Assembly (NCBI RefSeq): GCF_964213995.1
Contig: NC_135806.1
Location: forward strand, 139,748,001 to 139,812,000
Direction of reading: 5' to 3'
DNA: 64,000 nucleotides
Source: Mustelus asterias
Lineage: Eukaryota
Under the pieces are notes generated by a model. That model searched no databases, was not told the origin of the DNA, and saw only the letters and a program-made list of their open reading frames with translations. A program made the position numbers and the translations under genes. Of this stretch, positions 26,844-60,671 are shown in pieces. Position 1 is the first letter of the stretch. Each line of letters begins with the position of its first letter.

Positions 26844-27223
26844 AGCTTTCACTTAATGATTGGTCAATGACAGTGGCGGATATTATGAGTGTTGAGGAAG
26901 GGGGATCCGCTGTCCTGCCGTGCACTTTCACCCACCCACACCCTGATCGCACAGTCACCGGCTCTGTGAGATGGTACCACCCCGATTCAAAGGCTTACAA
27001 AGTTACCTTTAAGTGTACATATTCCGGCGGGTCCAGGGTGAAGCATGTGAGAGTGGGAAACAGCGGGATGGTGGGAGTCGATTCAAATTTGTGGGGAACT
27101 TCAGCAACAATGATGTCTCAATAATGATGGAGCGGCTGAGCTGGGTGGAAAGCGGTGAATATCACTGCCAGGTGAAACTCAATGTTGGAACATTTCAAAC
27201 ATAGAAATCAACAATTCTGACAA
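26844..27223 (+). pseudogene. Ig V-set domain exon 1, Siglec-15-like, disabled
   Basis: Acceptor ctctctccag. Reads LSLNDWSMTVADIMSVEEGGSAVLPCTFTHPH..VRWY..VTFKC, frameshift near 27025, then EAC..SRFKFVGNFSNNDVSIMMERL..SGEYHCQVKL..T*. Matches recalled Siglec-15 motifs (WSM, LPCTFTHPH, FRC..C, RF..GN...ND.S..ERL, YFCRV). TAG at 27202-27204. The 3' boundary is uncertain. Confidence 0.85.
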
Positions 27224-27408
27224 GTGAGAAATAAGGAACAATGTTCAGGGGCTGTAGCTACCCTGACAGTTTAATGGGTTAAGGATGCAGACTGGTCCAG
27301 CCCTGAAGCACACAGGGAAATAAACCCTCAGCAGCCCTGGGTTTTGAAGGGGGAATATTGTCTGAGGGTCCTGCTCCAGATCACTCTACAATGATTCCTC
27401 TTGGATCA

Positions 27409-29420
27409 GCCGCGATTCTCCCAAAAATATTCAGTGTCGAATTCGCATGAAAACTGGAGTAAATCATGCTGGTTTTTTTCAGTGGGAGTTCAGAGAAGAA
27501 TCTCCCACACTCTGTGCAATGCAGAGTGCACAAGTGTAAATCCTGTTGAAAATCAGGGGACAGGGCCCATCCCCGCCCGGAGGCTGGCAGCGTAGCGCCC
27601 AGTGGGCCACTGCTCATGTGCCAATTTGTCAGCACCAAGATGGCCCCTTTCTGCCGGCATCCCAATTGCTGGCCAGCTCGATTGCTGGCCAGCCCCGCGA
27701 CCTCCACATCGCCAGCTCTCTCATCCCCCCACCGCACCGCCCCCCAACAGCCCGATCATTGACCCCCCAAGCACGTCCAGGCCCAGCCCTGACTCCCCCA
27801 TCCCTCTGCTCCTGGCCCGCTCTAATCTCCAGCACATCACCCCTCCCGATACCTCCACCGGTGTAGCGGGATCCCCCTTCTTAACTCCACTCGTGGGCTT
27901 ATCTCAGGTTTGGTTCTCCGTTACCCAAACCCCACCAATGCCCGAGTGATTCTCTCTCTCGCCGATGGAACAACGGCCACCTTGCGCCTACTTCACTAGA
28001 GCAGCGCCCCCAAGAGAGAGAAAAGGAAACTGCTGGCTATCCACTACCTGGCAGCCTTTCCTGAGTGGGCGGGTTCGAATCACCCGGAGTACCCTCGGTT
28101 CTCGACTCCGGAATTATGGTAAGGGATATTAAAATGTGACCTGACCAGAGATAGCTGATGAGAAAATGAAAGAGCAAGATGGACTCCAATCAAGTTCAAG
28201 TCATATATCTTTTATTAAACACCAAAATTAAACCTCATCAACACCAGAAAACAAACATATAGGTATCTTATACTCTATAACTATGACTATGGGAAACAAA
28301 ACTAAACGGGCACAACGGAAATTCTAACTTCAAACAGTGTTAGCAATATCTTATACTATGAAACGATTCATGCACCCACCATTCCCACAAAAGCCTCCAC
28401 TGCTATGTTACCCTCGGGAACTTCACGAATTATTAGGAAATACTCAGTTGAGCCGACCTTGACCTTCTGGGCTGTCTGTGTGCTGGAAAACAGCTGTCTG
28501 CAACGTGGTTCAGGAGGGAGAGAGAGTTGCCATGCTGGTCCGAAGAGAAGAGAATGGCTGCAAAACCACACTTTTTAAAGTTCGGATTTCAAAAGTCCCG
28601 TGAGCTCCGCCCCCACCGGCAATTGCAAGAACAATGGTCCTAGAGCGCTATCAGCTCCAGTGATAGCACAGTCTATTGAAATCACAAATGGCTGAGACTG
28701 CCTTGTCCAGTATGAATGGCCCATCGATGTTCCTAATTACTTTACCGGGGCTTACAGATTGCTTTCCCATCATGGAGATGGGTTTCTCCTTACTGCTGGA
28801 TAGCCCCATTATCATATCTATTGTATCTTATCCAGGTACACTGTGGCTGGTATTGATCTTCCAATCTCGATGCAGGTGTGGTCTGGTGACGTCATCTGCT
28901 CCCTTTGTGATTCAGTTAATCTAATCAGCAGCCCGTCTGGACGCTGACTGTTTGTGAATTCGACTGGAGGCAGGCAGGGCTGAGCCTGCTGGGAGAAAAC
29001 AGCCAGTTTCTGCAGCCAAACGTGGCCACTTCTACCATTTAAATGGCCAATGTGCGTTTTACAGTCCTTATATGCGTTGGTGGTGCCCGAAAAACTTACA
29101 CCGGCAGTCCCTCCCTTCCCCTCCGCAGTGCCAACCACCCTCGACCCTCACAGCCCTGACCCCTTCCCTGCCTCATCAGCAGGCTGACTCCCCCCCCCCC
29201 CCCCCCCCCCCGGTCACCCCAATGGCCAGCCCTGATTGCTGGCACGATCTCTCCCCCATCCCTTTCTCTCCTGTCCCTGTCTTGGTCAGGTATGCAGCCA
29301 TGGAAAGTTTGGTTCAAGGGTGGCCACAGAGGGTTGGCAGCAGCCATGGGAATGTTTTGTGTTTGTGCTTCAGGGTGGGCAGTGCATGCCAGTGGCAACT
29401 AGTTTGAGCCTCTTTATTTA
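27409..29420. mobile_element. GC-rich DNA-transposon-like element interrupted by a solo LTR
   Basis: Start gcgattctcccaaaa is related to 8086-8597. C-rich sequence resumes after 29100. The right end is uncertain. Confidence 0.4.
27862..29100 (-). mobile_element. Solo LTR (~1.24 kb)
   Basis: TGTA...TACA ends and 4-bp TSD ccgg (27858-27861 and 29101-29104). AATAAA on the minus strand near 28213 suggests orientation. Confidence 0.65.
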
Positions 29421-29716
29421 AGTCAGGAGTTGGAGTTGGCTCCTCCACTTCTGTGTATTTCCACTGACATCAATACATAGCCTTCTCCTCACACCAGGTC
29501 AGTGAGAAAGGAGGGAATGGGTAGTTGGCACTTAGACAATATCTGATTGACATGCTGATTGGCCAATCACCATTGTGGGCCTGGCAATCCAGTCTCCCAA
29601 ACAGCCAATCAGCACTGACAATGAACAAAGCCTTACTGGATTGCAGACATCCTGCAGGGATTAAATTGAGGAATGTCACCAAGTCAATTCTGCTCAAATC
29701 AAGTGTCCAAAAGTTG

Positions 29717-30007
29717 ACGGCACGGTGGCATACTGTCAGCACTGCTGCCTCACAGCGCTAAGGACCCGGGTTTCAGCTCGGCCTCAGGTCACTGTCTGTG
29801 TCTGCGTGGGTTTCCTCCAGGTGCTCCAGTATCATCCCACAGTCCAAAAGACGTGCTGGTTAGGTGCATTGGCCATGCTAAATTCTCCCTCAGTGTACCT
29901 GAACAGGTGCCGGAGTGTGGTGACGAGGGGATCTTCACAGTAACTTCATTGCAGTGTTAATGTAAGCCTATTTGTGACACTAATAAATAAACTTTAAAAA
30001 CTTTAAA
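29717..30007 (+). mobile_element. V-SINE with alternative tail
   Basis: Same structure as 2404-2713. Confidence 0.75.
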
Positions 30008-30734
30008 GACAACCCCCTCTTTCCAGGACCAAAGAACAATACAGCACAGGAACAGGCCCTTTGGCCCTCCAAGCCTGCGCCGCTCATGTGCCCAACAAGA
30101 CCATTTGTTTGCATCCCTCTATTCCCAGTCTGTTCATGTGGCTATCTAAATAAGTCTTAAACGATCCCAGCGTGTCCGCATCAATCACCTTGCTTGGCAG
30201 TGCATTCCAGGCCCCACCACCCTCTGTGTAAAATACGTCCCCCTGACATCTATATTGAACCTTGCCCCCCTCACCTTGAACCCGTGACCCCTTGTGTTCG
30301 TCACCTCCGACCTGGGAAAAAGCTTCCCACTGTTCACCCTATCTATGCCCTTCATAATTTTATACACCTCTCTTAGGTCGCCCCTCATCCTCCGTCTTTC
30401 CAGGGAGAACAACCCCAGTTTACCCAATCTCTCCTCATAGCTAAGACCCTCCATACCAGGCAACATCCTGGTAAACCTTTTCTGTACTCTCTCCAAAGCC
30501 TCCACGTACTTCTGGTAGTGTGGCGACCAGAACTGGACGCAGTATTCCAAATGTGGCCTAACCAACGTTCTATACAGCTGCAACATCATATGCCAACTTT
30601 TATATTCTATGCCCTGTCCAATAAAGGCAAGCATGCCATATGCCTTCTTCACCACCCTCTCCACCTGTGCTGCCACCTTTAAGGATCTGTGGACTTGTAC
30701 ACCCAGGTCCCTCTGTGTGTCTATACTCCTGATA

Positions 30735-31066
30735 GCGGCACGGTAGCACAGTGGTTAGCACTGCTGCTTCACAGCTCCAGGGTCCTGGGTTCGATTCCCT
30801 GCTCGGGTCACTGTCTGTGTGGAGTTTGCACATTCTCCTCGTGTCTGCGTGGGTTTCCTCCGGGTGCTCCGGTTTCCTCCCACAGTCCAAAGATGTGCGG
30901 GTTAGGTTAATTGGCCATGCTAAAAATTGCCCCTTAGAGTCCTGTATGCGTAGATTAGAGGGATGAGCGGTTAAAAATATGTAGAGATATCTGGGTGGGA
31001 TTGTGGTCGGTGCAGACTCGATGGGCCGAATGGCCTCTTTCTGTACTGTAGGGTTTCTATTCTATG
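30735..31066 (+). mobile_element. HE1 V-SINE nested in CR1
   Basis: Full SINE. tgatag duplicated at the junctions. Confidence 0.88.
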
Positions 31067-31527
31067 ATAGTTCTGCCATTTATTGTATAGCTCCCCCTTA
31101 CATTAGATCTACCGAAATGCACCACTTCACATTTATCTGGATTAAATTCCATCTGCCATTTCTCCGCCCAATGTTCCAGCCTATCTATATCCTGCTGTAT
31201 TCTCTGACAATGTTCATCACTATCCGCAACTCCAGCAATCTTTGTGTCGTCCGCAAACTTACTGATCACACCAGCTACATCTTCCTCCAAATCATTTATA
31301 TATATATATATATATATATATATCACAAACAGCAGAGGTCCCAGTACAGAGCCCTGTGGAACACCACTAGTCACAGACCTCCAACCGGAAAAAGACCCCT
31401 CCACTGTTACCCTCTGTCTTCTATGGCTAATCATGATGTGGAGATGACGGCGTTGGACTGGGGTAAGCACAGTAAGAAGTCTCACAACACCAGGTTAAAG
31501 TCCAACAGGTTTATTTGGTAGCAAATA

Positions 31528-31564
31528 CCATAAGCTTTCGGAGCACAGCTCCTTCGTCAGATGG
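31528..31564 (-). ncRNA. Minimal hammerhead ribozyme
   Basis: Same sequence as 1019-1055, on the minus strand. Confidence 0.75.
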
Positions 31565-32149
31565 AGTGGATATCTGTTCTCAAACAGTGCAAACAGACAC
31601 AGAAATCAAATTACAGAATACTGATTAGAATGCAAATCTCTACAGCCAGCCAGGTCTTAAATGTACAGACAATGTGGGTGGAGGGAGCATTCAACACAGG
31701 TTAAAGAGATGTGTATTGTCTCCAGACAGAACAGCTAATGAAATTCTGCAAGTCCAGGAGGCAAGCTGTGGGGGTTACTGATAATGTGACATAAACCCAA
31801 CATCCCGGTTTAGGCCGTCCTCATGTGTGCGGAACTTGGCTATCAGTTTCGAGTCGCTGAGCAGAAACTGATAGCCAAGTTCCGCACACATGAGGACGGC
31901 CTAAACCGGGATGTTGGATTTATGTCACATTATCAGTAACTCCCACAGCTTGCCTCCTGGACTTGCAGAATTTCACTAGCTGTTCTGTCTGGAGACAATA
32001 CACATCTCTTTAACCTGTGTTGAATGCTCCCTCCACCCACATTGTCTGTACATTTAAGACCTGGCTGGCAGTAGAGATTTGCATTCTAATCAGTATTCTG
32101 TAATTTGATTTCTGTGTCTGTTTGCACTGTTTGAGAACAGATATCCACT

Positions 32150-32186
32150 CCATCTGACGAAGGAGCTGTGCTCCGAAAGCTTATGG
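32150..32186 (+). ncRNA. Minimal hammerhead ribozyme
   Basis: ccat CTGACGA a ggagc tgt gctcc GAAA gc TT atgg. Confidence 0.75.
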
Positions 32187-34129
32187 TATTTGCTACCAAA
32201 TAAACCTGTTGGACTTTAACCTGGTGTTGTGAGACTTCTTACTGTTCTATGGCTAAGCCAGTTCTCCACCCATCTAGCTAGCTCACCTTTTATCCCGTGA
32301 GATTTAATCTTTTGCACCAGCCTGCCATGAGGGACCTTGTCAAACGCTTTACTAAAATCCATATAGATGACATCCACGGCCCTTCCCTCGTCAATCGTTT
32401 TTGTCACCTCCTCAAAAAACTCAACCAAATTTGTGAGGCATGACCTCCCTCGTACAAAACCATGCTGTCTATCGCTAATGAGATTATTCAGTTCTAAATG
32501 CGCATATATCCTATCTCTAAGAATCTTCTCCAACAATTTCCCTACCACGGACTTCAAGCTCACCAGCCTATAATTACCCGGGTTATCCTTGCTACCCTTC
32601 TTAAATAACAGGACCGCATTTGCTATCCTCCAATCCTCTGGGACCTCACCTGTGTCCAGTGAAGAGACAAAGATTTCTGTTGGAGGCCCAGCAATTGCAT
32701 CTCTTGCCTCCCTGAGGAGTCTAGGATAGATGCCATCTGGCCCTGGGGATTTGTCTGTCTTAATGTTTCCTAAAAAACCTAACACTACCTCCCTTGTAAT
32801 TGAGATTTTTTTCTAACGGGTCAACACCTCTCTCTGAGACACTACCAGTCAACATGTCCCTCTCCTTTGTGAATACTGATGCAAAGTATTAATTTAGGAT
32901 TCCTCCTACTTCCTTGGGTTCTAAGCATAATTCCCCTCCTTTGTCCCTGAGAGGTCCGATTCTTTTGCTAACAACCCTCTTGTTCCTAACGTATGTATAA
33001 AATGCCTTAGGATTCTCCTTAATCCTGTCTGCCAAGGACATTTCGTGACCCCTTTTTGCCCTTCTAAGTCCCTGTTTGAGTTCTTTTCTACTTTCTCTGT
33101 ATTCCTCCAGTGCTCCATCTGTTTTTAGCTGCCTGGACCTCATGTATGCCTCTTTTTTCTTTTTGATTAGACCCACAATTTCACTGGTTATCCACGGCTC
33201 CCGAATCCTACCTTTCCTACCCTTCCTCTTTACAGGCACATGCCTGTCCTGCAGTCCTATCAACTGCTCCTTATAAGACTCCCACATGCCAGATGTGGAT
33301 TTACCCTTGAACAGCCTCTCCCAATCAACAGCCACCAAATCCTGCCTAATCCGGCTGTAGTTAGCCTTCCCCCAATTCAGCACCTTACTCTTGGGACAAC
33401 ACTCATCTTTTTCCATTACTATCCTAAAGTTTACAGAATTGTGGTCACTATTTGCCACATGTTCCCCTACTGAAACTTGGATGATCTGACCGGGCTCATT
33501 CCCCAGTACTCGGTCCAGTATAGTCCCTTCTCTAGTTGGACTGTCAACATATTGTTCCAAAGAACCTTCCTGTACGCATTTTATAAATTCTTCCCTGACC
33601 ACTTTAGCAAACACTTGCTATACTACCTCCAGTACAATATAGGTATATCCTTTTTTATCTGTATCCTTTCTTAAATATGTGGACCAAAACTGCGCACAGT
33701 ATTCCAGATGTGGTCTCAATAAAACTCTGTACAATTATAGCAAAACTTCTTTATTCCTCTACTCCAAACTCCTTACAATAAAGGCCAACTTGCCATTTGC
33801 TTAATTGTTTGGCTGCACCTGCATGCTAATTTACTGTGTTCCTTGGACAAGTCTCTTTGAATATCAACACTTACAGGTTTCTCAATAATAAAAAAATAGA
33901 CTTTTCTTTTTTCCAACCAAATTATACAACATCATACTTCCCTAGCTTAATAAAGCTGAGGATACTGTTTGCTTTATTAACTGCGCTCCCAACCTTTCCT
34001 GCCATCTTCAATGACTTACGCACATAAACAGCAGGCTCCTCTGTTTCCGCACCCACTTCAGAATAATACCCTTGATTTTGTATTGTCTCTTCATCATCTT
34101 CCTGAATCAGTTCTCTCCCATTTTGAAAA

Positions 34130-35090
34130 CTACTTGGAGGGAGCACTGAGGGTAGCAAGGGAACAGAGTATGCTCTGGGTGGGGAGCTCACCAAGAGGGG
34201 CTCGGTAGTACCACCACAGACCGAGCTGGCCGGGTCCTAAAGAGCATAGCTGCCAGACTGGGACTGGTGAGGGAACCAACAAGAGGGAAATATATACTTG
34301 ACCTGATCTTCACCAATCTACCTTTATCAGATGACAGAATTGGTAGGAGTGACTATGACTCAGACCTTCTGAAAATCATATCCATCTTCACATTGAAGAT
34401 ACCCTCCATCATGTTGTGTGGCACTACCACTGTGCTAAATAGGATGAATTTCAAACAGATTTAGCAACTCAAAACTGGGCATCCATGAGGTGCTGTGGGC
34501 CAACAGCAGAATTGTATTCAACCACAATCTGTAACTTTATGGCCTGGCATATCCCCCACTCTACCATTATCACCAGCTCAGGTGATCAACCCTGGTTCAA
34601 TGTCGAGTTCAAGAGGGCATGCCAGGAGCAGCACCAGGCATATAAAAATGAGGTTTCAACCTGGTGAATCACAAAACAGAACTACTTGCATGCCAAACTG
34701 TGCAAGCAGCATGCAATTGATAGGGTTAAGCGATCCACAAATAATGGATCAGATCCATTGAATGGTTGAATTGAACTACCCATTCCCTCCTTTCTCAGTG
34801 ACCTGGGATGAGGAGAGGGCTGTGTATTGATGACAGTTAAACAACTCACTGGAGGAGGAGGCTCCACAAATATCCCCATCCTCAATGATGGAGGAAGCCC
34901 AGCAGATCAAAGCAAAAGATACGGAAGAAGCATTTTCGACAATCTTTAACTAGACGTGCCGAGTGAATGATCCATCTCAGCCCCCCTGGAGATCCAAAGC
35001 ATCAAAGATGTCAGGCTTCAGCCAATTCAACTCCTCGAAACGGCTGAAGGCACTGGATACTGCAGAGTCTATGGACCCTGACAATATTCT
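34130..35090 (+). mobile_element. Old degraded CR1/L2-clade LINE fragment (EN-tether region)
   Basis: Remnant motifs VREPTRGKYILDLIFTNLP..IGRSD, DQPWFN, MDPDNI. Confidence 0.6.
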
Positions 35091-35292
35091 GTTTCCAATG
35101 CTAAAATGTCATCCCTGCTTGGGATAAGCATCTCACCTCTGATTTTTCCATTCATTTCTGAACTTTATATGCTGTAGTATTAAGCGCAGTCCTCACCATT
35201 TTTTAGTTTCTGATATTGCCAGCGCATCACATTCCCACACATCAATTTGTGCTTGTAGCTCACCATCCTTATTCATCACTGTTGTGAAGTTA

Positions 35293-36021
35293 CATAGAAA
35301 CATAGAAAACTACAGCACAAAACAGGCCCTTCGGCACCACAAGTTGTGCCAAACATATCCCTACCTTTTAGGCCTGCCTATAACCCTCCATCCTATTAAG
35401 TCCCATGTACTCATCCAGGAGTTTCTTAAAAGACCCTATTGGGTTTGCCTCCACCACCACTGACGGCAGCCAATTCCACTCGCCCACCACCCTCTGTGTG
35501 AAAAACTTCCCCCGAACATTTCCCCTGTACCTACCCCCCAGCACCTTAAACCTGTGTCCTCTCGTAGCAGCCATTTCCATCCTGGGAAAAAGCCTCTGAG
35601 AGTCCACCCGATCAATGCCTCTCAACATCTTATATACCTCTATTAGGTCTCCTCTCATCCTACATCTCTCCAAGGAGAAAAGACCGAGCTCCCTCAGCCT
35701 ATCCTCATAAGGCATGCCACTCAATCCAGGCAACATCCTTGTAAATCTCCTCTGCACCCTTTCAATCTTTTCCACATCCTTCCTGTAATGAAGCGACCAG
35801 AACTGAGCACAGTACTCCAAGTGGGGTCTGACGAAGGTCTTATATAGCTGCATCATTATCCCCGGACTCCTAAACTCAATCCCTCGATTGATAAAGTCCA
35901 GCACACCATACGCCTTCTTAACCACCTCCTCCACCTGTGGGGCCGATTTTAGAGTACTATGGACCCGGACCCCAAGGTCCTTCTGATTCTCTACCGTACT
36001 AAGAGTCTTTCCCTTTATATT
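35293..36021 (-). mobile_element. CR1 LINE 3' end (A)
   Basis: ORF 35368..36075 C-terminal domain, with (catagaaa)n tail. Confidence 0.9.
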
Positions 36022-39000: not shown

Positions 39001-39324
39001 ATGTGATCTCCAGGGAGAGGCGAAAACCCAGAGTGAAAACCCCAGGGCCAATATGGGGAAAAAAAATCTGGGAAATTCCTCTCCGACCCCCTGTGGCGAT
39101 CAAAACGAGTCCAGGAGATCACACTGGTCCTGATCAGAAAATGCTTCCCAACCCTATTCATTTCCACTTCTGCTTTACGAACACCATCTGAATTCCCTGC
39201 CCCCGAGACAGGTTCCCAACTATCCGCAGTCTCGCTCTGTACTGGCCCCAGCAAGATGATCATAGAATGAAGCCTTGAAACGAGAAACAAAGAACAATTA
39301 GCCCGCGCCGCTCCCTGGTCCAAA

Positions 39325-41706: not shown

Positions 41707-41734
41707 TACAACAACCCTATTTTCCCTGCACCTA

Positions 41735-44471: not shown

Positions 44472-45945
44472 ACCTGCCCTTATCCTTTATAGGGTTGGAT
44501 AAAAAAAGTCTCCGTAATGGCCACCACATCACACTTCCAGGCATCGATCCACGCTCTGAGCTCATCCCCTTTATTCACTATACTCCTGGCATTAAAGTAA
44601 ACACATCTCAATCCTTTGGTCTGAGCTCTCCCCTTCTCTATCCCCCGTCCATCTTCCCTCTTGCACCGTCTATAACCCTTCTCTGTTTGCGAGCTAACTT
44701 CCTCGCTCCCAGTCACCTCCTCTCGATCCCCTCCCCCCAACCTATCTAGTTTAAACTCTCCCCAGTAGCCTTAGCCAACCTTCCCGGGGTAGAGTAATTG
44801 TAGATTGGGTGGTACGAGGTGAGAATTTGATGTTTGTAATATTGTAAAATGCTCGGGGGGAAAGCATTGCATGGTCACGTTAAAAGATGGTGCTTTTTCT
44901 GTGCTTAGAGATTTAAAATGCAAGTACATGGACAGCCCAAACTGAAATGTTAGAATCCAAAGACCAAACAGCAGTTTTTGCCAAGTCCAAGCTTTTGAAT
45001 TTAGCCAATCAATTTGAATCAAGTATTTAGGTACCAAAAACCTATTAAATTTAAATCTGATAGTTTGACAACCTGGAACCAATCCTATTGTGGGGGATAT
45101 TGATCTGTCATCACAGGTATAAAAGAAGGGGGCAGTGGGACAAAAAGGGAGAGCAACTGCCACCTGCTGGAGCTCACAGCTCTCAGCTCTCTCTCTTTCT
45201 CTCGCTGACTATCATAGCTTCATCTATGTCTGAGAAAAAGCGCCATCTAGATAGCAAAGATACCAAAGAAGAAAGAAGTTCCAGACAGAAGAATCAACAG
45301 AGAAACCCCTGAATATTCCAGAGGACACAAAACCTGGTTGTAATTTAGAGAGTGACTAAATTCTACTTTTGTTAATGAGTGGGACTTGTATTTATTTGAA
45401 CAGCATACCATTAGAATCTTGTTTCTTACGGGAATAGTTAATAGTTAGGAGGAATTTATTCGATGTGTGAAGAGTTTAGTTAATTTGATTTGATTTAATT
45501 TCATTTGATTTGATTTGTCACATGTATTAACATACAGTGAAAAGTATTGTTTCTTGCCGCTATACAGGCAAAGCATACCGTCCATAGAGAAGGAAACGAG
45601 AGAGCGCAGAATGTAGTGTTACAGTCATAGCTAGGATGTAGAGAAAGATCAACTTAATGCAAGGGAAGTCCATTCAAAAGTCTGACAGCAGCAGGGAAGA
45701 AGCTGTTCTTGAGTCAGTTGGTACGTGACCTCAGACTTTTGCATCTTTTTCCCAACGGAAGAAGGTGGAAGAGAGAATGTCCGGGGTGCGTGGGGTCCTT
45801 AATTATGCTGACTGCTTTGCCGAAGCAGTGGGACAGAGTCAATGGATGGAAGGCTGGTTTGCGTGATGGATTAAGCTACATTCACGACCATTTGTAGTTC
45901 CTTGCGGTCTTGGGCAGAGCAGGAGCCATATCAAGCTGTGATACA

Positions 45946-49834: not shown

Positions 49835-49871
49835 CCACTAGCTTTCGGAGCACTGCCCCTTCATCAGGTGA
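49835..49871 (-). ncRNA. Minimal hammerhead ribozyme
   Basis: tcac CTGATGA a ggggc agt gctcc GAAA gc TA gtgg. The partner at 51960-51996 has a mutated core (CTGGTGA). Confidence 0.7.
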
Positions 49872-50035
49872 GTGGGAGTTCTGTTCACAAACAGGGCATA
49901 TACAGACACAAACTCAATTTACAAAATAATCGTTGGAATGCGCATCTTTACAGGTAATTAAGTCTTAAAGGTACAGACAATGTGAGTGGAGAGAGGGTTA
50001 AGCACAGGTTAAAGAGATGTGTATTGTCTCCAGCC

Positions 50036-51760
50036 TCCAGGTTTCAGCCTCATTGTTCCACAGGAGCAGGCTAAGTGTAAGGGAGCTTGTTTGTGCATTA
50101 TATTTATTTATTTGTCAGTTAAATTTGTGAAAAAAATCGGAGGTTTTTTTTCCAAAACAGGAAGTAGGCCCAGCAGCAGCCCGGGAAGGTTTTGGAGGGT
50201 TTAAAAGTAGGCCGCACTTTTGAGCGGGCAGTGTCGTTAGCAGGCAGTGGAGTGAGCAGGGGGCAGAGTGAGTGCTGAAGGGCTTTGGCTCAAAACGGGC
50301 TTCGGCGAGAACAGGCAGAGGCGAGAGTAGGTTTTTCTTTTTCAGAAAGTTTGAAAAGAAATCCGGGAAATTATAGGCCAGTAAGTTTGACGTCGGTGGT
50401 GGGCAATTTATTGGAAGGTGTGATAAGGGATAGGACCTACAAATATTTGGATAGACAGGGACTTAGGGAGAGTCAACATGGCTTTGTGCATGATAGGTCA
50501 TGTTTGACCAATCTATTCGAGTTTTTCGAGGAGGTTACCAGGAAAGTGGATGAAGGGAAGGCGGTGGATGTTGTCTACCTGGATTTCAGCAAGGCCTTTG
50601 ACAAGGTCCCTCATGGGAGGTTAGTTAGGAAGGTTCAGTCGCTAGGTATACATGGGGAGGTAGTAAATTGGATTAGACACTGGCTCAATGGAAGAAGCCA
50701 GAGAGTGGTTGTGGAGGATTGCTTCTCTGAGTGGAGGCCTGTGACTAGTGGTGTGCCGCAGAGATCGGTGTTGGGTCCATTGTTGTTTGTCATCTATATC
50801 AATGATCTGGATGATAATGTGGTAAATTGGATCAGCACGTTTGCTGATGATACAAAGATTGGAGGTGTAGTGGACAGTGAGGAACGTTTTCAAAGCTTGC
50901 AGAGGGATTTGGGCCAACTAGAAAAATGGGCTGAAAAATGGGAAATGGAATTTAACGCAGACAAGTGTGAGATATTGCACATTGGAAGGACAAACCAAAG
51001 TAGAACGTACAGGGTAAATGGTAGGACTCTGAAGAGTGCAGTTGAACAGAGGGATCTGGGAATACAGGTACAGAATTCCCTAAAAGTGACGTCACAAGTG
51101 GATAGGGTCGGAAAGAGTGCCTTTGGTACATTGGCCTTTATAAATCGGAGTATCGAGTATAAAAGTTGGAGTGTTATGGTAAGGTTATATAAGGCATTGG
51201 TGAGGCCGAATTTGGAGTATTGTGTACAGTTTTGGTCACCTAGTTACAGGAAGGATGTAAATAAGGTTGAAAGAGTGCAGAGAAGGTTCACAAGGATGTT
51301 GCCGGGACTTGAGAAGCTGAGTTACAGAGAGAGATTGAATAGGTTGGGACTTTATTCCCTGAAGCATAGAAGATTGAGGGGAGATTTGATAGAGGTGTAT
51401 AAGATTTTGAAGGGTATAGATAGAGTGAATGCAAGCAGGCTTTTTCCGCTGAGGCTAGGGGAGAAAAAAACCAGAGGGCATGGGTTAAGGGTGAAAGGAG
51501 AAAAGTTTAAAGGGAATATTAGCGGGGACTTCTTCACGCAGAGAGTGGTGGGAGTGTGGAATGAGCTGCCGGATAAAGTGGTCAATGCGGGGTCACTTTT
51601 AACATTTAAGAAAAACTTGGACGGGTTCATGGATGAGAGGGGTGTGGAGGGATATGGTCCAAGTGCAGGTCAGTGGGACTAGGCAAAAAATGGTTCGGCA
51701 CAGACAAGAAGGGCCAAAAGGCCTGTTTCTGAGCTGTAATTTTCTATGGTTCTATGGTTC
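50036..51760 (+). mobile_element. CR1 derivative: ~310 bp non-coding leader joined directly to RT and C-terminus
   Basis: ORF 50285..51682 shows homology from [12 protein letters not shown] onward, with (ttctatgg)n tail. Confidence 0.85.
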
Positions 51761-53005
51761 TCGGACTGGCTGGAGACAATACACATCTCTTGTCCTGGCT
51801 GGAGACAATACACATCTCTTTAACCTGTGCTTAACCCTCTCTCCACTCACATTGTCTGTGCCTTTAAGACTTGATGACCTGTAAAGATGCGCATTCCAAC
51901 CATTATCCTGTAAATTGAGTTTGTGTCTTTATATGCCCGTTTATGAACAGAACTCCCACTCACCTGGTGAAAGGGCAGCGCTCCGAAAGCTAGTGGCTTG
52001 TGCGAGCAGAAAGTTGCCAGTGTTGCTACATCTAGGCATCACGAGGTGTTGATTAGGAAGCAGATCTCTCCTTCCTTAGCCTTGCCTGAGGCCGCTGTGC
52101 AGTCCATTCAATGGACTGAGAAGCCCTTTGGTTGTAGGGCACTGTCCGGTGAAGCAGGGGTGAGCCACGTCTCCGTGAAACAGAGTGCACAGCAGTCCCT
52201 CAGTTCTCTTTGGAAAGCGAGTCTGGATTTAAGTTCGTCTGGCTTGTTTTCCAGAGATTGGACATTTGCCAGCAGTAAGGTGGGGAGGGGGGGCCTTGGG
52301 ACCGCGTTGTTTCACTCTCACCTGCAGCCTGAACGTTTTCCACACTTCCTGGAGTCTCTGCTTCTTTTCGAGCCTGGGGGACGGTGAGAGTGGTTTGCGG
52401 TGTTAAGGGTATGGTTGTGTCCAATGAGGTTCTTCACTCTGGTCGGCATGTGGATGGAGGATTTGTTGCCTTGCTAGCAGTTCCTGCGTCGGTAGATTGG
52501 TCTGCGCGGTCGGGCGTTCCGGGTTGCTGTCAGACTGCGTTTTGGCTTTGCCGGTTGTTGGTTCACTATTAGTTAGATAAATAAATTGTTACGTGTTAAT
52601 TTTAGAGAGAGAGTGTCAGGGATTTATTTTTCTATTTAACAACTAGAAGGTGCTGAAGAGCAGGTCACACCACTTCACTCGCACTGTTTACAGATTATAG
52701 GGCAAGGTACTCCTCTTTGGTTGTGTCGGGTAGTTTTCAGAGGCCGGGATCCACCTTGCTTTATAACAATCACACTTTGTGCATTTACATACATATATTC
52801 CAAATGAATCTGGGGAAGGGTATGCAGATAGTTCGAGTCATGTTGAAATCAAAAAGGAGGAGGTATTGGGGTTCTTGAGAAACATTAAGATAGACAAGTC
52901 CCCAGGGCCTGATGGGATATATCCCAGAATACTGAGAGAGGCAAGGGAGGAAATTGCTGGGGCCTTCAGAGAAATCTTTATATCCTCACTGGCCACAGGG
53001 GAGGT

Positions 53006-53107
53006 ACACACAGTAAGAAGTCTCACAACAGGTTGGACTTTAACCTGGCGTTGTGAGACTTCTTACTGTGTTTACCCCAGTCCAACGCCGGCACCTCCAC
53101 ATCATGA
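53006..53107. mobile_element. Penelope mini-hairpin (~100 bp)
   Basis: cacagtaagaagtctcacaac / gttgtgagacttcttactgtg plus tail. TSD ccacaggggaggt / ctacaggggagat. Confidence 0.82.
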
Positions 53108-53426
53108 CTACAGGGGAGATCCCAGAGGATTGGAGACTAGCCAATGTTGTTCCTTTGTTTAATAAGGGTAGCAAGAATAATTCAGGTAATTACAGGCCGG
53201 TGAGCCTTACGTCAGTGGTAAGGAAATTATTGGAGAGGATTCTTTGAGACAGGATTTATTCCCGCTTGGAAATAAGTGGATGTATTAGTGAGAGGCAAGA
53301 TGGTTTTGTGAAGGAGAGCTCGTGTCTCACTAACATAAGAACATAAGAAATAGGAGCAGGAGTAGGCCATCTAGCCCCTCGAGCCTGCCCCGCCATTCAA
53401 TAAGATCATGGCTGATCTGACGTGGA

Positions 53427-56400
53427 TCAGTACCACTTACCCGCCTGATCCCCATAACCCTTAATTCCCTTACCGATCAGGAATCCATCCATCCGCGCTT
53501 TAAACATATTCAGCGAGGTAGCCTCCACCACCTCAGTGGGCAGAGAATTCCAGAGATTCACCACCCTCTGGGAGAAGAAGTTCCTCCTCAACTCTGTCTT
53601 AAACCGACCCCCCTTTATTTTGAGGCTGTGTCCTCTAGTTTTAACTTCCTTACTAAGTGGAAAGAATCTCTCCGCCTCCACCCTATCCAGCCCCCGCATT
53701 ATCTTATAAGTCTCCATAAGATCCCCCCTCATCCTTCTAAACTCCAACGAGTACAAACCCAATCTCCTCAGCCTCTCCTCATAATCCAAACCCCTCATCT
53801 CAGGTATCAACCTGGTGAACCTTCTCTGCACTCCCTCCAATGCCAATATATCCTTCCTCATATAAGGGGACCAATACTGCACACAGTATTCCAGCTGCGG
53901 CCTCACCAATGCCCTGTACAGGTGCATCAAGACATCCCTGCTTTTATATTCTATCCCCTTCGCAATATAGGCCAACATCCCATTTGCCTTCTTGATCACC
54001 TGTTGTACCTGCAGACTGGGCTTTTGCGTCTCATGCACAAGGACCCCCAGGTCCCTTTGCACGGTAGCATGTTTTAATTTGTTTCCATTGAGATAGTAAT
54101 CCCATTTGTTATTATTTCCTCCAAAGTGTATAACCTCGCATTTATCAATGTTATACTCCATTTGCCATATCCTCGCCCACTCACTCAGCCTGTCCAAATC
54201 TCTCTGCAGATCTTCTCCGTCCTCCACACGATTCACTTTTCCACTTATCTTTGTGTCGTCTGCAAACTTCGTTACCCTACACTCCGTCCCCTCCTCCAGA
54301 TCATCTATATAAATGGTAAATAGTTGCGGCCCGAGTACCGATCCCTGCGGCACGCCACTAGTTACCTTCCTCCAACCGGAAAAACACCCATTTATTCCGA
54401 CTCTTTGCTTCCTGTCAGATAGCCAGTCCCCAATCCACTTTAACACACTACCCCCAACTCCGTGTGCCCTAATCTTCTTCAGTAGCCTTTTATGGGGCAC
54501 CTTATCAAACGCCTTTTGGAAATCCAAAAACACCGCATCCACCGGTTCTCCTCCATCAACCGCCCTAGTCACATCTTCATAAAAATCCAACATGTTCGTC
54601 AAGCACGACTTTCCCCTCATGAATCCATGCTGCGTCTGATTGATCGAACCATTTCTATCCAGATGCCCTGCTATCTCCTCTTTAATAATGGATTCCAGCA
54701 TTTTCCCTACTACAGACGTTAAGCTGACCGGCCTATAGTTACCCGCCTTTTGTCTCCTTCCTTTTTTAAACAGCGGCGTAACATTAGCCGTTTTCCAATC
54801 AACCGGCACTACCCCAGAATGCAACGAGTTTTGATAAATAATCACTAACGCATCCACTATTACCTCTGACATTTCTTTCAATACCCTGGGATGCATTCCA
54901 TCCGGACCCGGGGACTTGTCCACCTTCAGTCCCATTAGTCTACCCAGCACTGCCTCTCTGGTAACATTAATTGTATTAAGTATTTCTCCTGCTGCCAACC
55001 CTCTATCGTTAATATTTGGCAAACTATTTGTGTCCTCCACCGTGAAGACCGACACAAAAAACTTATTTAAAGACTCAGCCATATCCTCATTTCCCACTAT
55101 TAACTCCCCCCTCTCGTCCTCCAAGGGTCCAACATTCACTCTAGCCACTCTATTCCTTTTTATATATTTATAAAAACTTTTACTATCATTTTTTATATTA
55201 ATTGCTAGCCTAGCTTCATAGTCTATCCTTCCTTTCTTTATCGCTTTCTTAGTCTCTCTTTGTTGTTTCTTCAATTTTTCCCAATCACTTGTTTCTCCAC
55301 TATTTTTGGCCACTCTGTACGCAGCTGTTTTTATTTTAATACTCTCCTTTATTTCCTTCGTTATCCACGGCTGGTTCTCCCTTTTCTTACAATCCTTGTT
55401 TTTTGCTGGAATATATTTTTGCTGAGAACTGAAAAGGATCTCCTTAAAAATCCTCCACTGTTCCTCAGCTATCCTACCTGCCAGCCTGCTCTCCCAGTCT
55501 CCCTTAGCCAATTCATCCCTCATCCTATCATATTTCCCTCTGTTCAAACAGAGGACACTGGTTTGGGACCAAACTTTCTCCTCTTCCATCTGAATCAGAA
55601 ATTCAACCATATTGTGGTCACTAGACCCAAGAGGGTCCTTCACAATAAGATCCTTAATTCTACCTACCTCGTTACACAATACCAGATCCAAAATAGCTCG
55701 TTCCCTCGTCGGTTCCGTAACATGCTGTTCAAGGAAACTATCCCGACAGCATTCTAAGAACTCTTCCTCCATTCCACCCTTACCGACTTGAGTCTGCCAG
55801 TCAATGTGCATGTTGAAGTCCCCCATGATTATTGCCGTTCCGTTTTTACACGCATCCCTTATCTGCTTGTTTATAGCCCTCCCTACCTCAACATTATTAT
55901 TTGGGGGCCTATATACCACACCTACTAGTGTCTTTCTCCCTCTACTATTCCTCATCTCTACCCATAATGATTCCACGTTTTGTTCCTCAGAGCCTATGTC
56001 ATCCCTCAGTACTACCCTGATATTATCTCTTATTAATAGCGCGACCCCACCACCTTTTCCTTCCTGTCTATTCTTCCTAAACGCCTGATACCCCTGGATA
56101 TTCATCTCCCAGTCCTGGTCACCTTTCAGCCACGTTTCTGTAATGGCCACTAGATCGTACCCACTCGTGCTGATTTGCACCATCAACTCATTTACCTTGT
56201 TCCGAATGCTTCGTGCATTCAGGCAAAGTGTCCTTATTCCAGCTTTTATCTGGACCCGCTTTGATGAGTCGCGAACACCGTCTCCCTCTACTCCCTTATC
56301 TAAATTACCGCCTTCATTCACTTGCACCCTCTCCTCTACCATTAATTTTGTAATTCCCCTTACCCCTGCATCCTCCACCCCATCAATTAGTTCCTTGATC

Positions 56401-56432
56401 CTAGTCAACTCTTCTAGCTCCCCTCCCCCCAA
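53427..56432 (-). CDS. Intact CR1 ORF2 (APE endonuclease + reverse transcriptase), 1001 codons
   Basis: [56 protein letters not shown]. No stops. Confidence 0.96.
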   Translation of the reverse strand: MGGGELEELTRIKELIDGVEDAGVRGITKLMVEERVQVNEGGNLDKGVEGDGVRDSSKRVQIKAGIRTLCLNARSIRNKVNELMVQISTSGYDLVAITETWLKGDQDWEMNIQGYQAFRKNRQEGKGGGVALLIRDNIRVVLRDDIGSEEQNVESLWVEMRNSRGRKTLVGVVYRPPNNNVEVGRAINKQIRDACKNGTAIIMGDFNMHIDWQTQVGKGGMEEEFLECCRDSFLEQHVTEPTRERAILDLVLCNEVGRIKDLIVKDPLGSSDHNMVEFLIQMEEEKVWSQTSVLCLNRGKYDRMRDELAKGDWESRLAGRIAEEQWRIFKEILFSSQQKYIPAKNKDCKKRENQPWITKEIKESIKIKTAAYRVAKNSGETSDWEKLKKQQRETKKAIKKGRIDYEARLAINIKNDSKSFYKYIKRNRVARVNVGPLEDERGELIVGNEDMAESLNKFFVSVFTVEDTNSLPNINDRGLAAGEILNTINVTREAVLGRLMGLKVDKSPGPDGMHPRVLKEMSEVIVDALVIIYQNSLHSGVVPVDWKTANVTPLFKKGRRQKAGNYRPVSLTSVVGKMLESIIKEEIAGHLDRNGSINQTQHGFMRGKSCLTNMLDFYEDVTRAVDGGEPVDAVFLDFQKAFDKVPHKRLLKKIRAHGVGGSVLKWIGDWLSDRKQRVGINGCFSGWRKVTSGVPQGSVLGPQLFTIYIDDLEEGTECRVTKFADDTKISGKVNRVEDGEDLQRDLDRLSEWARIWQMEYNIDKCEVIHFGGNNNKWDYYLNGNKLKHATVQRDLGVLVHETQKPSLQVQQVIKKANGMLAYIAKGIEYKSRDVLMHLYRALVRPQLEYCVQYWSPYMRKDILALEGVQRRFTRLIPEMRGLDYEERLRRLGLYSLEFRRMRGDLMETYKIMRGLDRVEAERFFPLSKEVKTRGHSLKIKGGRFKTELRRNFFSQRVVNLWNSLPTEVVEATSLNMFKARMDGFLIGKGIKGYGDQAGKWY

Positions 56433-56437
56433 CCTAT

Positions 56438-57100
56438 CTAGTTTAAATTCTCCCCAGTAACCTTAGCCAACCTACCGGCCAGGATATTGGTCCCCGTGTG
56501 ATTCAAGTTCCACCCGTTTTTTGTATACAGATCACCCCTGCCCCTAAAGAGGTCCCAATGGTCCAGGAACCTGAATCCCTGCCCCCTGCACCAGTCCCTC
56601 AGCCACACATTCATCTTCCACCTCACTCCATTCCTGCCCTCACCTTCCCGTGGCACAGGTAGTAATCCTGAGATTACTACCTTTGCTTTCCTCTTTCTCA
56701 GCTGTCTCCCTAATTCCCTGTACTCCCTTTTCATGACCCCTTCTCCCTTCCTACCCACATCAGCGGTACCAATATGTACCGCTACCTCAGGCTCCTCTCC
56801 CTCCCACCTCAGGATTTCCGGGACGCGACTAGCGACATCCTGGATCCCGGCCCCAGGGAGGCAGACCACCATGCGAGAATCCCGCCTACCTCCGCAGAAA
56901 CGCCTGTCTGTCCCCTTCACCATCGAGTCCCCGATTAATACCGCCTTCCTCCTCTTTTCCTTAGCCCTCTGAGTTACAGGGCTGGACTCCACTGCGGAGA
57001 CACGGCCACTGCTGCTTCCCCCAGGCGGGCTGTCCCCCCCAGCAGTACTCAAGCAGGAGTACTTGTTGTGCAGGGGCAAATCCACTGGGGTGCTCTCAAC
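56438..57100 (-). CDS. CR1 ORF1 C-terminal SGNH esterase-like part
   Basis: LIGDSMV, VCLPGAGI, VHIGTAD, FLDHW; ends ENLN*. Confidence 0.87.
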   Translation of the reverse strand, partial: VESTPVDLPLHNKYSCLSTAGGDSPPGGSSSGRVSAVESSPVTQRAKEKRRKAVLIGDSMVKGTDRRFCGGRRDSRMVVCLPGAGIQDVASRVPEILRWEGEEPEVAVHIGTADVGRKGEGVMKREYRELGRQLRKRKAKVVISGLLPVPREGEGRNGVRWKMNVWLRDWCRGQGFRFLDHWDLFRGRGDLYTKNGWNLNHTGTNILAGRLAKVTGENLN

Positions 57101-58689
57101 CATGATCGAGTTTTTCAAGAAAGTGGCGAAGGTGATTGATGAGGGTAGGGCAGTGGATGTTGTCTAACATGGACTTCAGTAACGCCTTTGACAAGGTCCC
57201 TCATGGCAGAAGGTGAAGTCGCAGGTGAGCTGGCAAGATGGATACAGAACTGGCTTGGTCATAGAAGACAGAGGGCAGCAGTGGAAGGGGACATTTCTGA
57301 ATGGAGGGCTGTGACAAGTGGCATTCCTCAGGGATCAGTGCTGGGACCTTTGCTGTTTGTAATATATATAAATGATTTGGAGGAAAATGTAACTGGTTTG
57401 ATTAGTAAGTTTGTGGATGACACAAAGTTTGGTGGATTTTCAGATAGTGATGAGGACCATCAGAGGATACAGCAGGATATAGATCAGTTGGCGACTTGGG
57501 CGGAGAGATGGCAGATGGAGTTTAATCCGGACAAATGTGAGGTAATGCACTTTGGAAGGTCTAATACAGATAGGAAATATACAGTAAATGGCAGAACCCA
57601 TAAGAGTACTGATAGGCAGAGGGATCTGGTTGTACAGGTACACAGGTCACTGAAAGTGGCCACGCAGGTAGAGAAGGTAGTCAAGAAGGCATATGGCATG
57701 CTTGCCTTCATCGGCCGGAGCATTAAGTTTAAAAAGTGGCAAGTCATGTTGCAGCTTTATAGAACCCTAGTTAGGCTGCACTTGGAATATAGTGTTCAAT
57801 TCTGGTCGCCACACTACCAGAAGGATGCGAAGGCTTTGGAGAGGGTACAGAAAAGATTTACAGGATGTTGCCTGGTATGGAGGGCATTAGCTATGAGGAG
57901 AGTTTGGAGAAACTTGGTTTGTTCTCACTGGAACGACGGAGGTTGAGAGGTGAACTGATTGAAATCTACAAGATTATGAGGGGCATGGACAGAGTGGATA
58001 GTCAGAAGCTTTTTCCCAGGATGGAAGAGTTAATTACTGGGGGACATAGGTTTAAAGTGCGAGAGGCAAGGTTTAAAGGAGATGTACGAGGCAAGTGTTT
58101 TACACAGAGGGTGGTGGTGCCCGGAACTCGCTGCCAGGGGAGGTAGTGAAGGAGATACGATAGTGACTTTTAAGGGGCGTCTGGACAAATAGATGAATAG
58201 GATGGGAATGGAGGGATATGGTCCCCAGAAGGGTAGGGAGTTTTAGTTCAGTCGGGTAGCATGGTCGGTGCAGGCTTGGAGAGCCGAAGGGCCTGTTCCT
58301 GTGCTGTAATTTTCTTTATTCTTTGTTCATCATTAACCACTTGGAACGCGGTGAGGCCTAATCTCAGTTTGAAATTGATGAGGAACAGTTGCTGGTAGAT
58401 TGTCGAGTTTGCAGCGTGTAGGAGAATCTAATGTTGTTCTCTGTCTCTTATTGCAAAAGTAACCAGCAAATTAGGTTGGAAATGTTGGAGAAATAACCAA
58501 AACAAGGGACCGAGGTCTCCACGGTTAAGAAAAGGGTAAAAGAAAGATTTCCCTCTGAGGAATAGCTAGAGCTGAAGAGAATTCTTCAGAAGATTGTGGC
58601 ATCATTATGGGTGGTCCCCACAGAAATAAATAACTTCAAGATTCATATGTCTTTTTAGAGAATTCTTGGGGAAAGTATGAAGTATGGGA

Positions 58690-58999
58690 AGCACAGTGAT
58701 TAGCACTTCTGCCTCATAGTGCCAGGGACCCAGGTTCAGTTCCAGCCTTGGGTGACTGTCTGTGCAGAGTCTGCAGGTTCTGTATGTCTGCATGGGTTGC
58801 CTCCGGGTGCTCCAGTTTCCTCCCACAGTCAAAGATGTGCGGATAAAGTTGATTGGCCATGCTAAATTGCCTCTTAGTGTCAGGGGATTATCAGGGTAAA
58901 TACGTGGGGTTACGGGGCTAGGGCCTGGGTGGGATCGTTGTCGGTGCAGGCTCAATGGGCTGAATGGCCTCCTTCTGCACTGTAAGGATTCAATGATTC
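58690..58999 (+). mobile_element. HE1 V-SINE
   Basis: Head, V-core and CR1-type tail. Confidence 0.85.
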
Positions 59000-59191
59000 T
59001 AAGTAAACCTGAGTGCATAATGTTTTTAAACAATATTAAGATGATAGTTTCTTTTGTTAAAAGTGAAATCTTGTGGTGTAGTTTGATTGGTTAAAACAAG
59101 GTATTGGGATTTCATTTGAAATGTTAACAACCCCTACTTGAATCAGGACATCATCCAGACACTGATCATTCTGTTGTTTGTCTTTCCTCAG

Positions 59192-59540
59192 ATGCGAGTG
59201 GAAATGACCCCGTGGTGAATGGGACTGAGGGAGCTTCAGTTACATTGCCCTGTATGTTCACATCCTGGAGTTCCCTCACTCTGGCCACTGTTAGCTGGAT
59301 GAGGAAGGAGCCCTACCAACGCGTGGTCACATTTAGAGCCAATCAAGTGGGGATCATGGACAACTGTAAATGGTAGAAATTGATGTGAGCTCATTGGGAG
59401 CCCAAAGAAGGGAAATGCCTCAATCAGGGTAAACCAGTTGAGTGCGAATCGTAATCACTCTCACCAGTGTCTGGTGGAGTACACATCGTCCGATTGTCAA
59501 TATCTGATCCAGAATGAGACACGGCTGCAGATCATACATG
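59192..59540 (+). pseudogene. Ig V-type domain exon 2, disabled
   Basis: Acceptor tctttcctcag, donor G|gtaaga, phase 1/1. Reads VNGTEGASVTLPCMF..VSWMRKEPYQRVVTF, frameshift near 59348, then GRN*CELIGSPKKGNASIRVNQL..HQCLVEY..ETRLQI. TGA at 59381-59383. Confidence 0.85.
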
Positions 59541-59940
59541 GTAAGAAATCATTGCTGCATTCTCCAGTGAATAGAGAGTGTACATTGAGGGTGAGCTGTT
59601 TAACTCAAAACACTCATTGGATGTGGTTTAGTTGGGAGCACTCTCACCTCTGAATCAGAGGGTTATGGGTTCAGATCCCACTGCAGCATTTGAGGCTTTT
59701 TATGGAAAAGTACACCTTTACATCACACTATAGTGCGTAACCCTAAGGCCATGGTTATGATAGTAGTTAGTCCTAATACTCTGATTGCTATAGTATTCAC
59801 CCCGCCACCAAAGTGTTTACCTTCATCACTGTGAGTACTATGATATTTACCCTTAACAGTTAATAAAAGTTATATTTACCCCTCTCAGCAAGGGAAGACT
59901 GAATGGCCTCTTTCTGTGCAGTAATGATTCCTGACTCTGT

Positions 59941-60131
59941 GAGTAGAATTCTCCAGCCCCACTGTGCTGGAGACGGCTTTCCATTGGCTGCTGGTGGGAT
60001 CTTCCAGTCCTGCTGAAGTCGATGGTGATTTACATTCCTTGCCCAAGCCACCATCAGGGAATCCATGACAAGCGCTGACATTGGTGGGACCAGAAGATCC
60101 CATCAGCGGGAAGGGCTGGAGAATTCCACCC
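59941..60131. mobile_element. Short MITE
   Basis: Inverted repeats gaattctccagccc (59946-59959) and gggctggagaattc (60113-60126). Confidence 0.6.
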
Positions 60132-60571
60132 TGTAACATTATTCACCCCCAATACTTAATATTAAACTTAATATTAAATTAGTCTCCAGATTCACTGCAA
60201 GTACAACATAATTTACCCAAGTCACTTTGAACACTACAATAATTAGCTGTAATTTGGGACATTCTAGAGAATTAAACCTTATTGCTGTACATACTGCAAA
60301 CTAACCCTATTGTTTTAAATATTATAGGGTCAGAAAGTGACTATAAATGCAATAGTATTGATCCCTGCCAATGTGAAACATTATTGATACTGTCTATTTG
60401 TTGCTTTTCATCCACAGTCCATGCTCTTTGCCAAGTTCAGCTCCATTAATTTAATATTTCTAATCTGCAATCGAGTTCCACAATTGTCTACAGACTTGGA
60501 TTATTGTCTCTACGTTGTTGGTCTCTCAGCTTTTCTTGTCTCTGATCTGATCTCTTTCATTTTCTGTTCAG

Positions 60572-60671
60572 CTGCAGAGACTTTCCCCATCGTGATACTG
60601 TGCATTCCATTTGGAGTGAAACTCCTTCCCCTTCTCGTGATGTGGATCGTTTTATACAGGGACAGAACCAG
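60572..60671 (+). pseudogene. Transmembrane exon with intramembrane Lys
   Basis: Acceptor ttttctgttcag, donor AG|gtatgg. Reads AAETFPIVILCIPFGVKLLPLLVMWIVLYRDRTR: a hydrophobic run with a central K, followed by basic stop-transfer residues. Confidence 0.75.

Follow-up and report, generated by a model that had tools for sequence, protein, structure and literature searches.

A decayed V-V-TM(Lys) receptor gene of the Siglec-15 lineage in Mustelus asterias and its probably paired shark and ray relatives

The window analyzed here is a 64,000-nt stretch of the Mustelus asterias genome (G000), C6:139,748,001-139,812,000, read on the forward strand. It contains a receptor gene copy, referred to as gene B, with leader, V1, V2, and lysine-bearing transmembrane (TM) exons, all on the plus strand. 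The leader (signal peptide) exon is at 17983..18042. The V1 exon (26844..27230) encodes a Siglec-15-like V-set domain with an extra Cys pair (FKC..EAC, codons at 27014 and 27046). The V2 exon (59192..59540) encodes a second V-set domain that lacks the extra Cys pair and the Arg; it carries LPC, WMRK, ELIG..K.GNASI..QL, C.VEY, and TRL.I. The TM exon (60572..60671) has an open frame, with its Lys codon at 60619-60621; its identity to the corresponding exons in genes A and C is ~98%. All of the V1, V2, and TM-Lys motifs quoted in a preliminary description of this DNA are in place, although they had been read across frameshifts, and FKC..EAC itself spans the frameshift in V1. In a whole-genome search the pieces of gene B match an intact relative with E values of 7e-21 and 3e-15 (V1), 6e-19 and 2e-15 (V2), and 3e-8 (TM); the motif matches far exceed chance. 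At the position of the Arg that is essential in Siglec-15, gene B has Gln (codon 27169).

V1 and V2 are separated by a ~32-kb intron (27231..59191, +) swollen by repeats. Hidden Markov models of V1, V2, the Siglec-15 V domain, C2, and TM found no further leader, immunoglobulin (Ig), or TM exon in six frames across 27241-59180, and the only leaders within the window are those of genes A and B. The gap is therefore read as one intron, and V-V-TM(Lys) as one gene, as the preliminary description had it; separate genes for the V1 and the V2/TM exons are ruled out. The start-to-start distance from V1 to V2 is 2.1 kb in gene D and 14 kb in gene C, compared with the 32-kb intron of gene B. The region is packed with repeats of the long and short interspersed nuclear element types (LINE and SINE), the intron contains LINE-type open reading frames, and 87% of it has a second copy inside 664 kb of fetched DNA. 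A search for a C2 remnant before the TM exon found none (best E 0.13), and a decayed C2 at this place is rejected.

Gene B is a pseudogene, a decayed copy of a receptor gene, with lesions defined by alignment to intact paralogues. Its leader exon is 60 nt, compared with 61 nt in paralogues A and C, and hence is out of phase with V1. In V1, 7 nt are missing near 27031, in the stretch flanked by the two extra Cys; a TAG interrupts the frame at 27202, one nucleotide is inserted near 27222, and AT replaces the GT donor at 27231. V2 has one nucleotide inserted near 59348, and a TGA interrupts its frame at 59381. For gene B, no counterpart of the last coding exon of genes A and C was found in the fetched DNA. 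Two public runs, which may derive from the source individual and are not independent, yield contigs in which the V2 lesions recur with 0 differences. In one sample of a differently labelled organism (~95% alike, with 25 of the 29 differing letters listed), the contigs have only a 6-nt in-frame gap over 26702-27376, so the V1 frameshift is common to that organism. Because the V2 lesions recur in two runs and the V1 frameshift in this organism, the damage is likely real and old, and assembly error is an unlikely source. The gene itself is dead, and its relevance is limited to marking copy turnover.

DNA searches of the genome gave three V1, four V2, and three TM matches, every one on C6. Gene A lies head to head with gene B on the minus strand. 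Its leader exon is at 1713..1773 and the first 44 nt of its V1 exon at 300..343, with the remainder in an assembly gap (N at 100-299). The intact V2, the TM(Lys), and a short last exon of gene A are left of the window; RefSeq model P0156 unites these three and lacks V1, because the V1 exon is cut by the gap. Gene C, ~20 kb past the window (C6:139,832,338-139,880,6xx), is an intact V-V-TM(Lys) paralogue. It has exons of 61, 384, 348, and 100 nt with matching phases and AG/GT at all internal junctions, and their order, leader-V1-V2-TM(Lys)-short tail, bears out the architecture first proposed for the window. The tail of gene C has 10 codons without Tyr, and the frame of its last exon stays open up to codon 10. 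Gene D begins at C6:140,753,793 and corresponds to protein P0007, which we mapped exon by exon. It has V1-V2, an uncharged TM segment, and the tail motifs TYADI, TYASL, and VTYAAV. It had been suggested from the window that partners with immunoreceptor tyrosine-based inhibitory motifs may exist nearby, and gene D, on the same contig, is a partner with tyrosine motifs. At the essential-Arg position gene C has Gln and gene D has Arg. RefSeq already predicts genes of this family under mixed automatic names (Siglec-15, Siglec-12, pIgR-like, JAML-like, and uncharacterised).

Left of gene A, in C6:139,451,832-139,600,350, are genes E, F, and G, with F between E and G. Gene E is V-V-C2-TM with an uncharged TM segment and Tyr-motif exons, and gene G is V-V-C2-TM with Lys. 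Gene F is V-C2-TM; the Arg is present, and there is no extra Cys pair or central Lys. C2 and TM share one exon in all three genes, as they do in human SIGLEC15. The C2-type exons match Pfam Ig_3/I-set, not V-set. Across V2 and C2, genes E and G are ~96% alike; their divergence sets in at the TM segment, inside one exon.

Domain 2 of the C2-less family is assigned to the V-set on the basis of profile matches and a predicted fold, in agreement with the preliminary description. Pfam V-set is above its cut-off in all five intact exons scanned (V2 E 1e-19 to 7e-16). An AlphaFold model of P0011, built on a 14-sequence alignment, has two beta-sandwiches and one TM helix, with a mean predicted local distance difference test score of 77 and a predicted template modeling score of 0.71. 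The top Foldseek rows for this model are tandem-V proteins (JAML, single-chain antibodies, and VCBP3), with low whole-chain template modeling scores. For domain 1, VIA-align ranks Siglec-15 first (Z 16.4, root-mean-square deviation 2.2, 121 aligned, 35% identity), tied within 1 Z with the runner-up, myelin P0 (Z 15.6). Siglec-15 is also the best PDB sequence match of V1 (E 3.8e-11). The V2 search of the PDB places pIgR ectodomains first, with a score summed over several domains. The TM segments of the Lys members and of mouse Siglec-15 have a common LG-L/V-K-x-L pattern.

A protein search with V2 found 46 relatives among 77 candidates, and all named ones are from sharks. Nine have a TM Lys, 16 an uncharged TM segment with a Tyr motif, 7 an uncharged TM segment without a motif, and 14 no TM segment. 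The V1 search found 112 of 142, with sharks and rays first (51-90% identity), followed in the main by Siglec-15 of mammals (37-44%). This search added 25 shark and ray proteins, 9 of which have a TM Lys. The Lys on which the proposed receptor type depends is kept in genes A and C and in 18 relatives. Apart from one uncharacterised catfish protein, the named V1 matches from outside the elasmobranchs are all Siglec-15 proteins; a few rows are unnamed. In a profile search of 1.84 billion representatives, of which the best 150 were examined and 20 are named, the C2-less V1-V2 type is found in sharks and rays only among the named rows, and the V-V-C2 type in a chimaera, a shark, and rays. The chimaera has a Lys form (P0172) and a Tyr-motif form without Lys (P0282) in one 90% cluster. 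Lungfish P0175 is V-V-C2-TM-Lys with a separate V duplication, and a newt likewise has two V domains. Two V domains are not unique to the elasmobranch family; V-V placed directly on a Lys TM segment without C2 is elasmobranch-only among the named rows. Activating (TM-Lys) and Tyr-motif types co-occur in at least 10 shark and ray species, and both TM types are maintained from sharks to rays. Independent multiplications of V exons in the Siglec-15 lineage (P0145, P0175, P0169, P0001) include a lungfish protein with seven V and C2, a lungfish protein with two V, C2, and TM-Lys, and the two V of the newt; a sevengill shark model has three V2 copies.

Searches of the Mustelus asterias genome with Siglec-15 of mouse and gull point to this cluster, which provides the top 5 of 40 and the top 4 of 28 matches, respectively; none is on C1. 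We did not find a canonical V-C2-TM(Lys) gene among the 40 and 28 matches, in a search that scores best candidates only and hence is no proof. Human SIGLEC15 lies next to SLC14A1/EPG5, with urea-transporter genes among its neighbours. Urea-transporter gene matches in the shark lie on C1, as do ATP synthase alpha-type matches 29 Mb apart from them, and no match to Siglec-15 is present in one 200-kb flank of the C1 urea-transporter genes. In a 44-row V tree, with seven Mustelus asterias V exons only as outgroup, 37 rows (cluster domains and Siglec-15) are apart from these 7 other shark Siglec-like V exons (support 96/94). The V2 domains of the C2-less and the C2-bearing types are sisters in this tree (100/97).

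The likeness to Siglec-15 consists of an N-terminal V-set domain (35-44% identity) that has the extra Cys pair, a strand F Arg in most members, a similar context of the TM Lys, and a short tail in the activating form. Canonical Siglec-15 is described as having one V and one C2 domain (PMC11652361). The C2-less shark genes differ from this layout, since domain 2 is V-set, there is no C2 remnant, and TM is its own exon. They further differ in forming a multigene cluster with Tyr-motif partners, in the loss of the Arg in several activating members, and perhaps in their location, with no Siglec-15 match in the 200 kb searched beside the urea-transporter genes. The preliminary description considered the gene a candidate receptor type distinct from canonical Siglec-15. 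This stands for its V-V layout without C2, but not for its descent, as the C2-less V-V family is a branch of the Siglec-15 lineage with a second V gained and C2 absent. The simplest reading would be a change from V-C2-TM to V-V-C2-TM in a chondrichthyan ancestor, followed by loss of C2 in elasmobranchs. Membership of the Siglec-15 lineage is supported by these comparisons; one-to-one orthology with tetrapod SIGLEC15 is not implied.

In trees built from 40 V1 rows and from 43 V2 rows (using the membrane-proximal copy), sequences group by taxon, not by signaling type. The type label requires 12 changes on both trees, no fewer than shuffled labels, which are as low as 12 in 112-141 (V1) and 54-56 (V2) of 500 shuffles. 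We compared identities among 23 proteins, each species and type being represented by one or two. Opposite types within one species are 82.8% identical in V2 and 27.9% in TM (11 pairs, 10 species). The values are 62.6% and 50.9% for the same type in different species (120 pairs) and 62.3% and 26.6% when species and type both differ (121 pairs). In the M. asterias cluster, look-alike ectodomains are likewise joined to opposite TM/tail modules (A/C versus D, and G versus E). Gene A V2 is 96.9% identical to that of the inhibitory-type gene D, with 77-99 of 100 columns matching in the exon versus 18-45 of 100 outside, and a 120-bp stretch at the start of gene A V1 is identical to gene D. The leader and TM of gene A are 96.7% and 99.3% identical to those of gene C. 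Gene A is a mosaic of a D-like V2 and a C-like leader and TM. V domains that follow taxon and TM segments that follow type form a pattern that we interpret as that of paired receptors under concerted evolution, with gene conversion the likeliest cause of the V-exon likeness. The Arg is present in 31 of 40 V1 rows. It is kept in 20 of 21 inhibitory rows and in 11 of 19 activating ones (7 without, 1 unparsed); the rows are not independent, three activating losses being one clade, and a commoner loss in activating members is only a hint.

We are fairly confident that the window holds a pseudogene of an elasmobranch Siglec-15-lineage V-V-TM(Lys) receptor, whose intact paralogues are likely activating through a DAP12-type adaptor and likely paired with look-alikes whose Tyr motifs predict inhibition. 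In mammalian Siglec-15 the TM Lys is required for binding of DAP10/DAP12 (PMC7226832), and R143 on strand F is required for sialic acid (PMC7226832, PMC11652361). By analogy, the TM Lys of intact members would pair with an acidic residue of an adaptor with an ITAM (immunoreceptor tyrosine-based activation motif) and recruit Syk, and the Tyr-motif tail of D-type members may recruit SHP-1/2. Gene conversion would keep the ligand-binding ends alike, such that a microbe engaging the inhibitory receptor may also trigger its activating twin, a counter-trap. V1 domains with the Arg would bind sialic acid; the activating copies without it, B and C, may bind something else or nothing. Copies would be born and lost quickly, gene B being a dead one. 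Paired Siglecs with opposite signaling, homogenized by conversion and often null in the activating member, have been described (PMC6288428).

Several points weigh against the paired-receptor interpretation. Adaptor binding, signaling, and ligand are predictions for this family, and the essential Arg is missing in genes B and C. We did not find DAP12 in the Mustelus asterias genome, where no suitable model was tried; a search for the DAP10 family gave two matches that are not adaptor exons, and an ITAM search gave none. Gene D is ~0.95 Mb from gene B, and the cluster DNA read stops short of the intervening C6:139,912,000-140,736,000 (~820 kb, C to D) and of 88 kb between G and A. No splice joints were seen in matching contigs of public runs, so splice phases and RefSeq models are the basis for joining the exons; among the public runs that contain the sequence, no RNA run is on record. 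The V exons of gene B are only 77-86% like those of its neighbours (V2 85%). In three carpet sharks the TM-Lys genes group across species in a clade of their own, and concerted evolution is not universal. Finally, the V tree, with its seven shark V exons as outgroup, does not settle the deeper order or which V lineage is nearest to tetrapod Siglec-15. As a separate observation on adaptors, the genome has two zeta-family TM exons, L113 (C275:471,050-471,133) and L112 (C17:72,917,226-72,917,312), which we take to be FcR-gamma and CD3-zeta, respectively. By contrast, one study reported that it found no FcR-gamma-type chain in sharks (PMC4016189).

Exon shuffling among genes that are repeatedly born and lost would also group V domains by taxon. 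The V-V-TM(Lys) family could then be real and yet contain no functional pair: the V exons would be similar because the genes were duplicated in tandem recently and exchanged their TM/tail exons, and each type could serve cells or ligands unrelated to those of the other. Genes C and D fit such a history in that their V1 domains are only 80% alike and the activating C lacks the Arg that the inhibitory D keeps, so they may not share a ligand. We nevertheless consider it unlikely, as the tract common to A and D is confined to the exon with sharp edges, E and G switch type inside one exon, and both TM types are kept from sharks to rays, with a Lys form and a form without Lys in the C2-bearing type of a chimaera too. 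Less probable still is that the TM-Lys gene is a plain shark orthologue that, like Siglec-15, senses sialic acid in myeloid or clast cells, the change in domain 2 and the additional copies being incidental. This would fit the best matches of mouse and bird Siglec-15 in this cluster, the lack of a canonical gene elsewhere among those matches, the retained Cys pair of V1, and the RefSeq name Siglec-15 of several members. However, the cluster contains three Lys-bearing layouts of common ancestry (A/B/C without C2, G with C2), its V-C2 gene F has neither the central Lys nor the Cys pair, and the Arg is missing in 7 of 19 activating versus 1 of 21 inhibitory V1 rows, subject to the dependence and the unparsed row mentioned above.

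A Cys after the C-strand Trp marks the domains of CD300, TREM, and pIgR, and neither V domain has it. This argues against the genes belonging to a known V-domain family of cartilaginous fish (skate MDIR, CD300/TREM/pIgR-like) with a convergent likeness to Siglec-15, a reading that we regard as highly improbable. Against it are also V1, the TM-Lys segment, and the C2+TM exons of cluster neighbours, which all point to Siglec-15, and the named V1 matches outside the elasmobranchs, Siglec-15 save for the one catfish protein and the few unnamed rows. For it are the pIgR ectodomains at the top of the V2 search of the PDB, by a score summed over several domains, and the fact that MDIRs, compared here by description only, are a multigene activating and inhibitory family of skates (PMC3031540).

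With the paired-receptor reading preferred, Siglec-5/14 and Siglec-11/16 are among the close designs. These likewise combine charged-TM activating and Tyr-motif inhibitory forms with similar ectodomains and gene conversion, and include frequent null activating genes and Arg loss in some lineages (PMC6288428). They differ in being CD33-related primate genes with V and C2, whereas the pair described here arose in the Siglec-15 lineage of cartilaginous fishes and has no C2. Skate MDIR and teleost NITR are also multigene families of Ig-domain receptors with activating and inhibitory members (PMC3031540). Other designs with some of these properties are Siglec-12, which has two V-set domains, keeps its C2 domains, and is inhibitory, and PILR-alpha/beta, C2-less paired receptors with one Siglec-like V and a TM Lys. 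PILR is absent among the matches of the V1 and V2 PDB sequence searches and of the V1 protein search. The teleost DICP and pIgRL are further multigene paired receptor families. By their descriptions MDIR, NITR, DICP, and pIgRL are set apart as CD300/TREM/pIgR- or KIR-like, not Siglec-15-like.

Siglec-15 has been regarded as an activating Siglec that is conserved and single-copy, and pairing as something that belongs to the CD33 cluster of mammals. If our reading is true, the paired design also evolved in the lineage of Siglec-15, early in jawed vertebrates and on more than one occasion. Few innate activating and inhibitory receptors are known from cartilaginous fish; the intact genes named here are candidates for both, and the family offers a direct way to test adaptor-coupled signaling and sialic-acid self-recognition in these animals. 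We found no account of the family in the literature available to us; gene lists of shark genomes may name the genes. A wider and rather doubtful extension is that the Siglec-15 lineage in cartilaginous fishes is a paired cluster that dates back to the split of chimaeras and sharks and contains two independent pairs (V-V-C2 and C2-less V-V), a canonical V-C2-TM(Lys) gene being absent. Mammals and birds would then retain, in their lone activating Siglec-15, the survivor of such a cluster, and shark activating members, which repeatedly lost the Arg, may have turned into sensors for microbial proteins directed at the inhibitory partner.

Other features were noted on C6 and elsewhere. A degenerate V1-like stretch is found at C6:140,815,723-140,815,992 (+), ~18 kb past the last mapped exon of gene D, with no V2 or TM after it. 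The only pikachurin (EGFLAM) EGF match in the genome is ~110 kb past gene D, at C6:140,910,172-140,910,261 (+), and is a useful synteny anchor. Frames with reverse transcriptase, RNase H, and integrase-like motifs at C6:139,420,127-139,423,000 (+) are likely a long terminal repeat retrotransposon remnant. On C20, at 119,837-893,271 and 5.46-5.50 Mb, there is a large cluster of V exons with the Siglec-type F-strand Arg and no F-strand Cys, which is likely the CD22/sialoadhesin/CD33-like cluster. Within the window, the leader-V1 intron of gene B contains a 2.3-kb inverted repeat (20683-23015 and 23504-25831, 99.4% identical), and further palindromic stretches are at 31466-32248 and 2824-3350. 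A 59-bp tandem array at 18790-19604 has 13.8 copies with 94% matches; its unit resembles a LINE 3' end. In the V1-V2 intron, an open 1011-aa endonuclease/reverse-transcriptase-like frame (53430-56462, -) is preceded upstream by a 241-aa frame (56441-57163, -), and by their motifs the two are a young CR1-type LINE.

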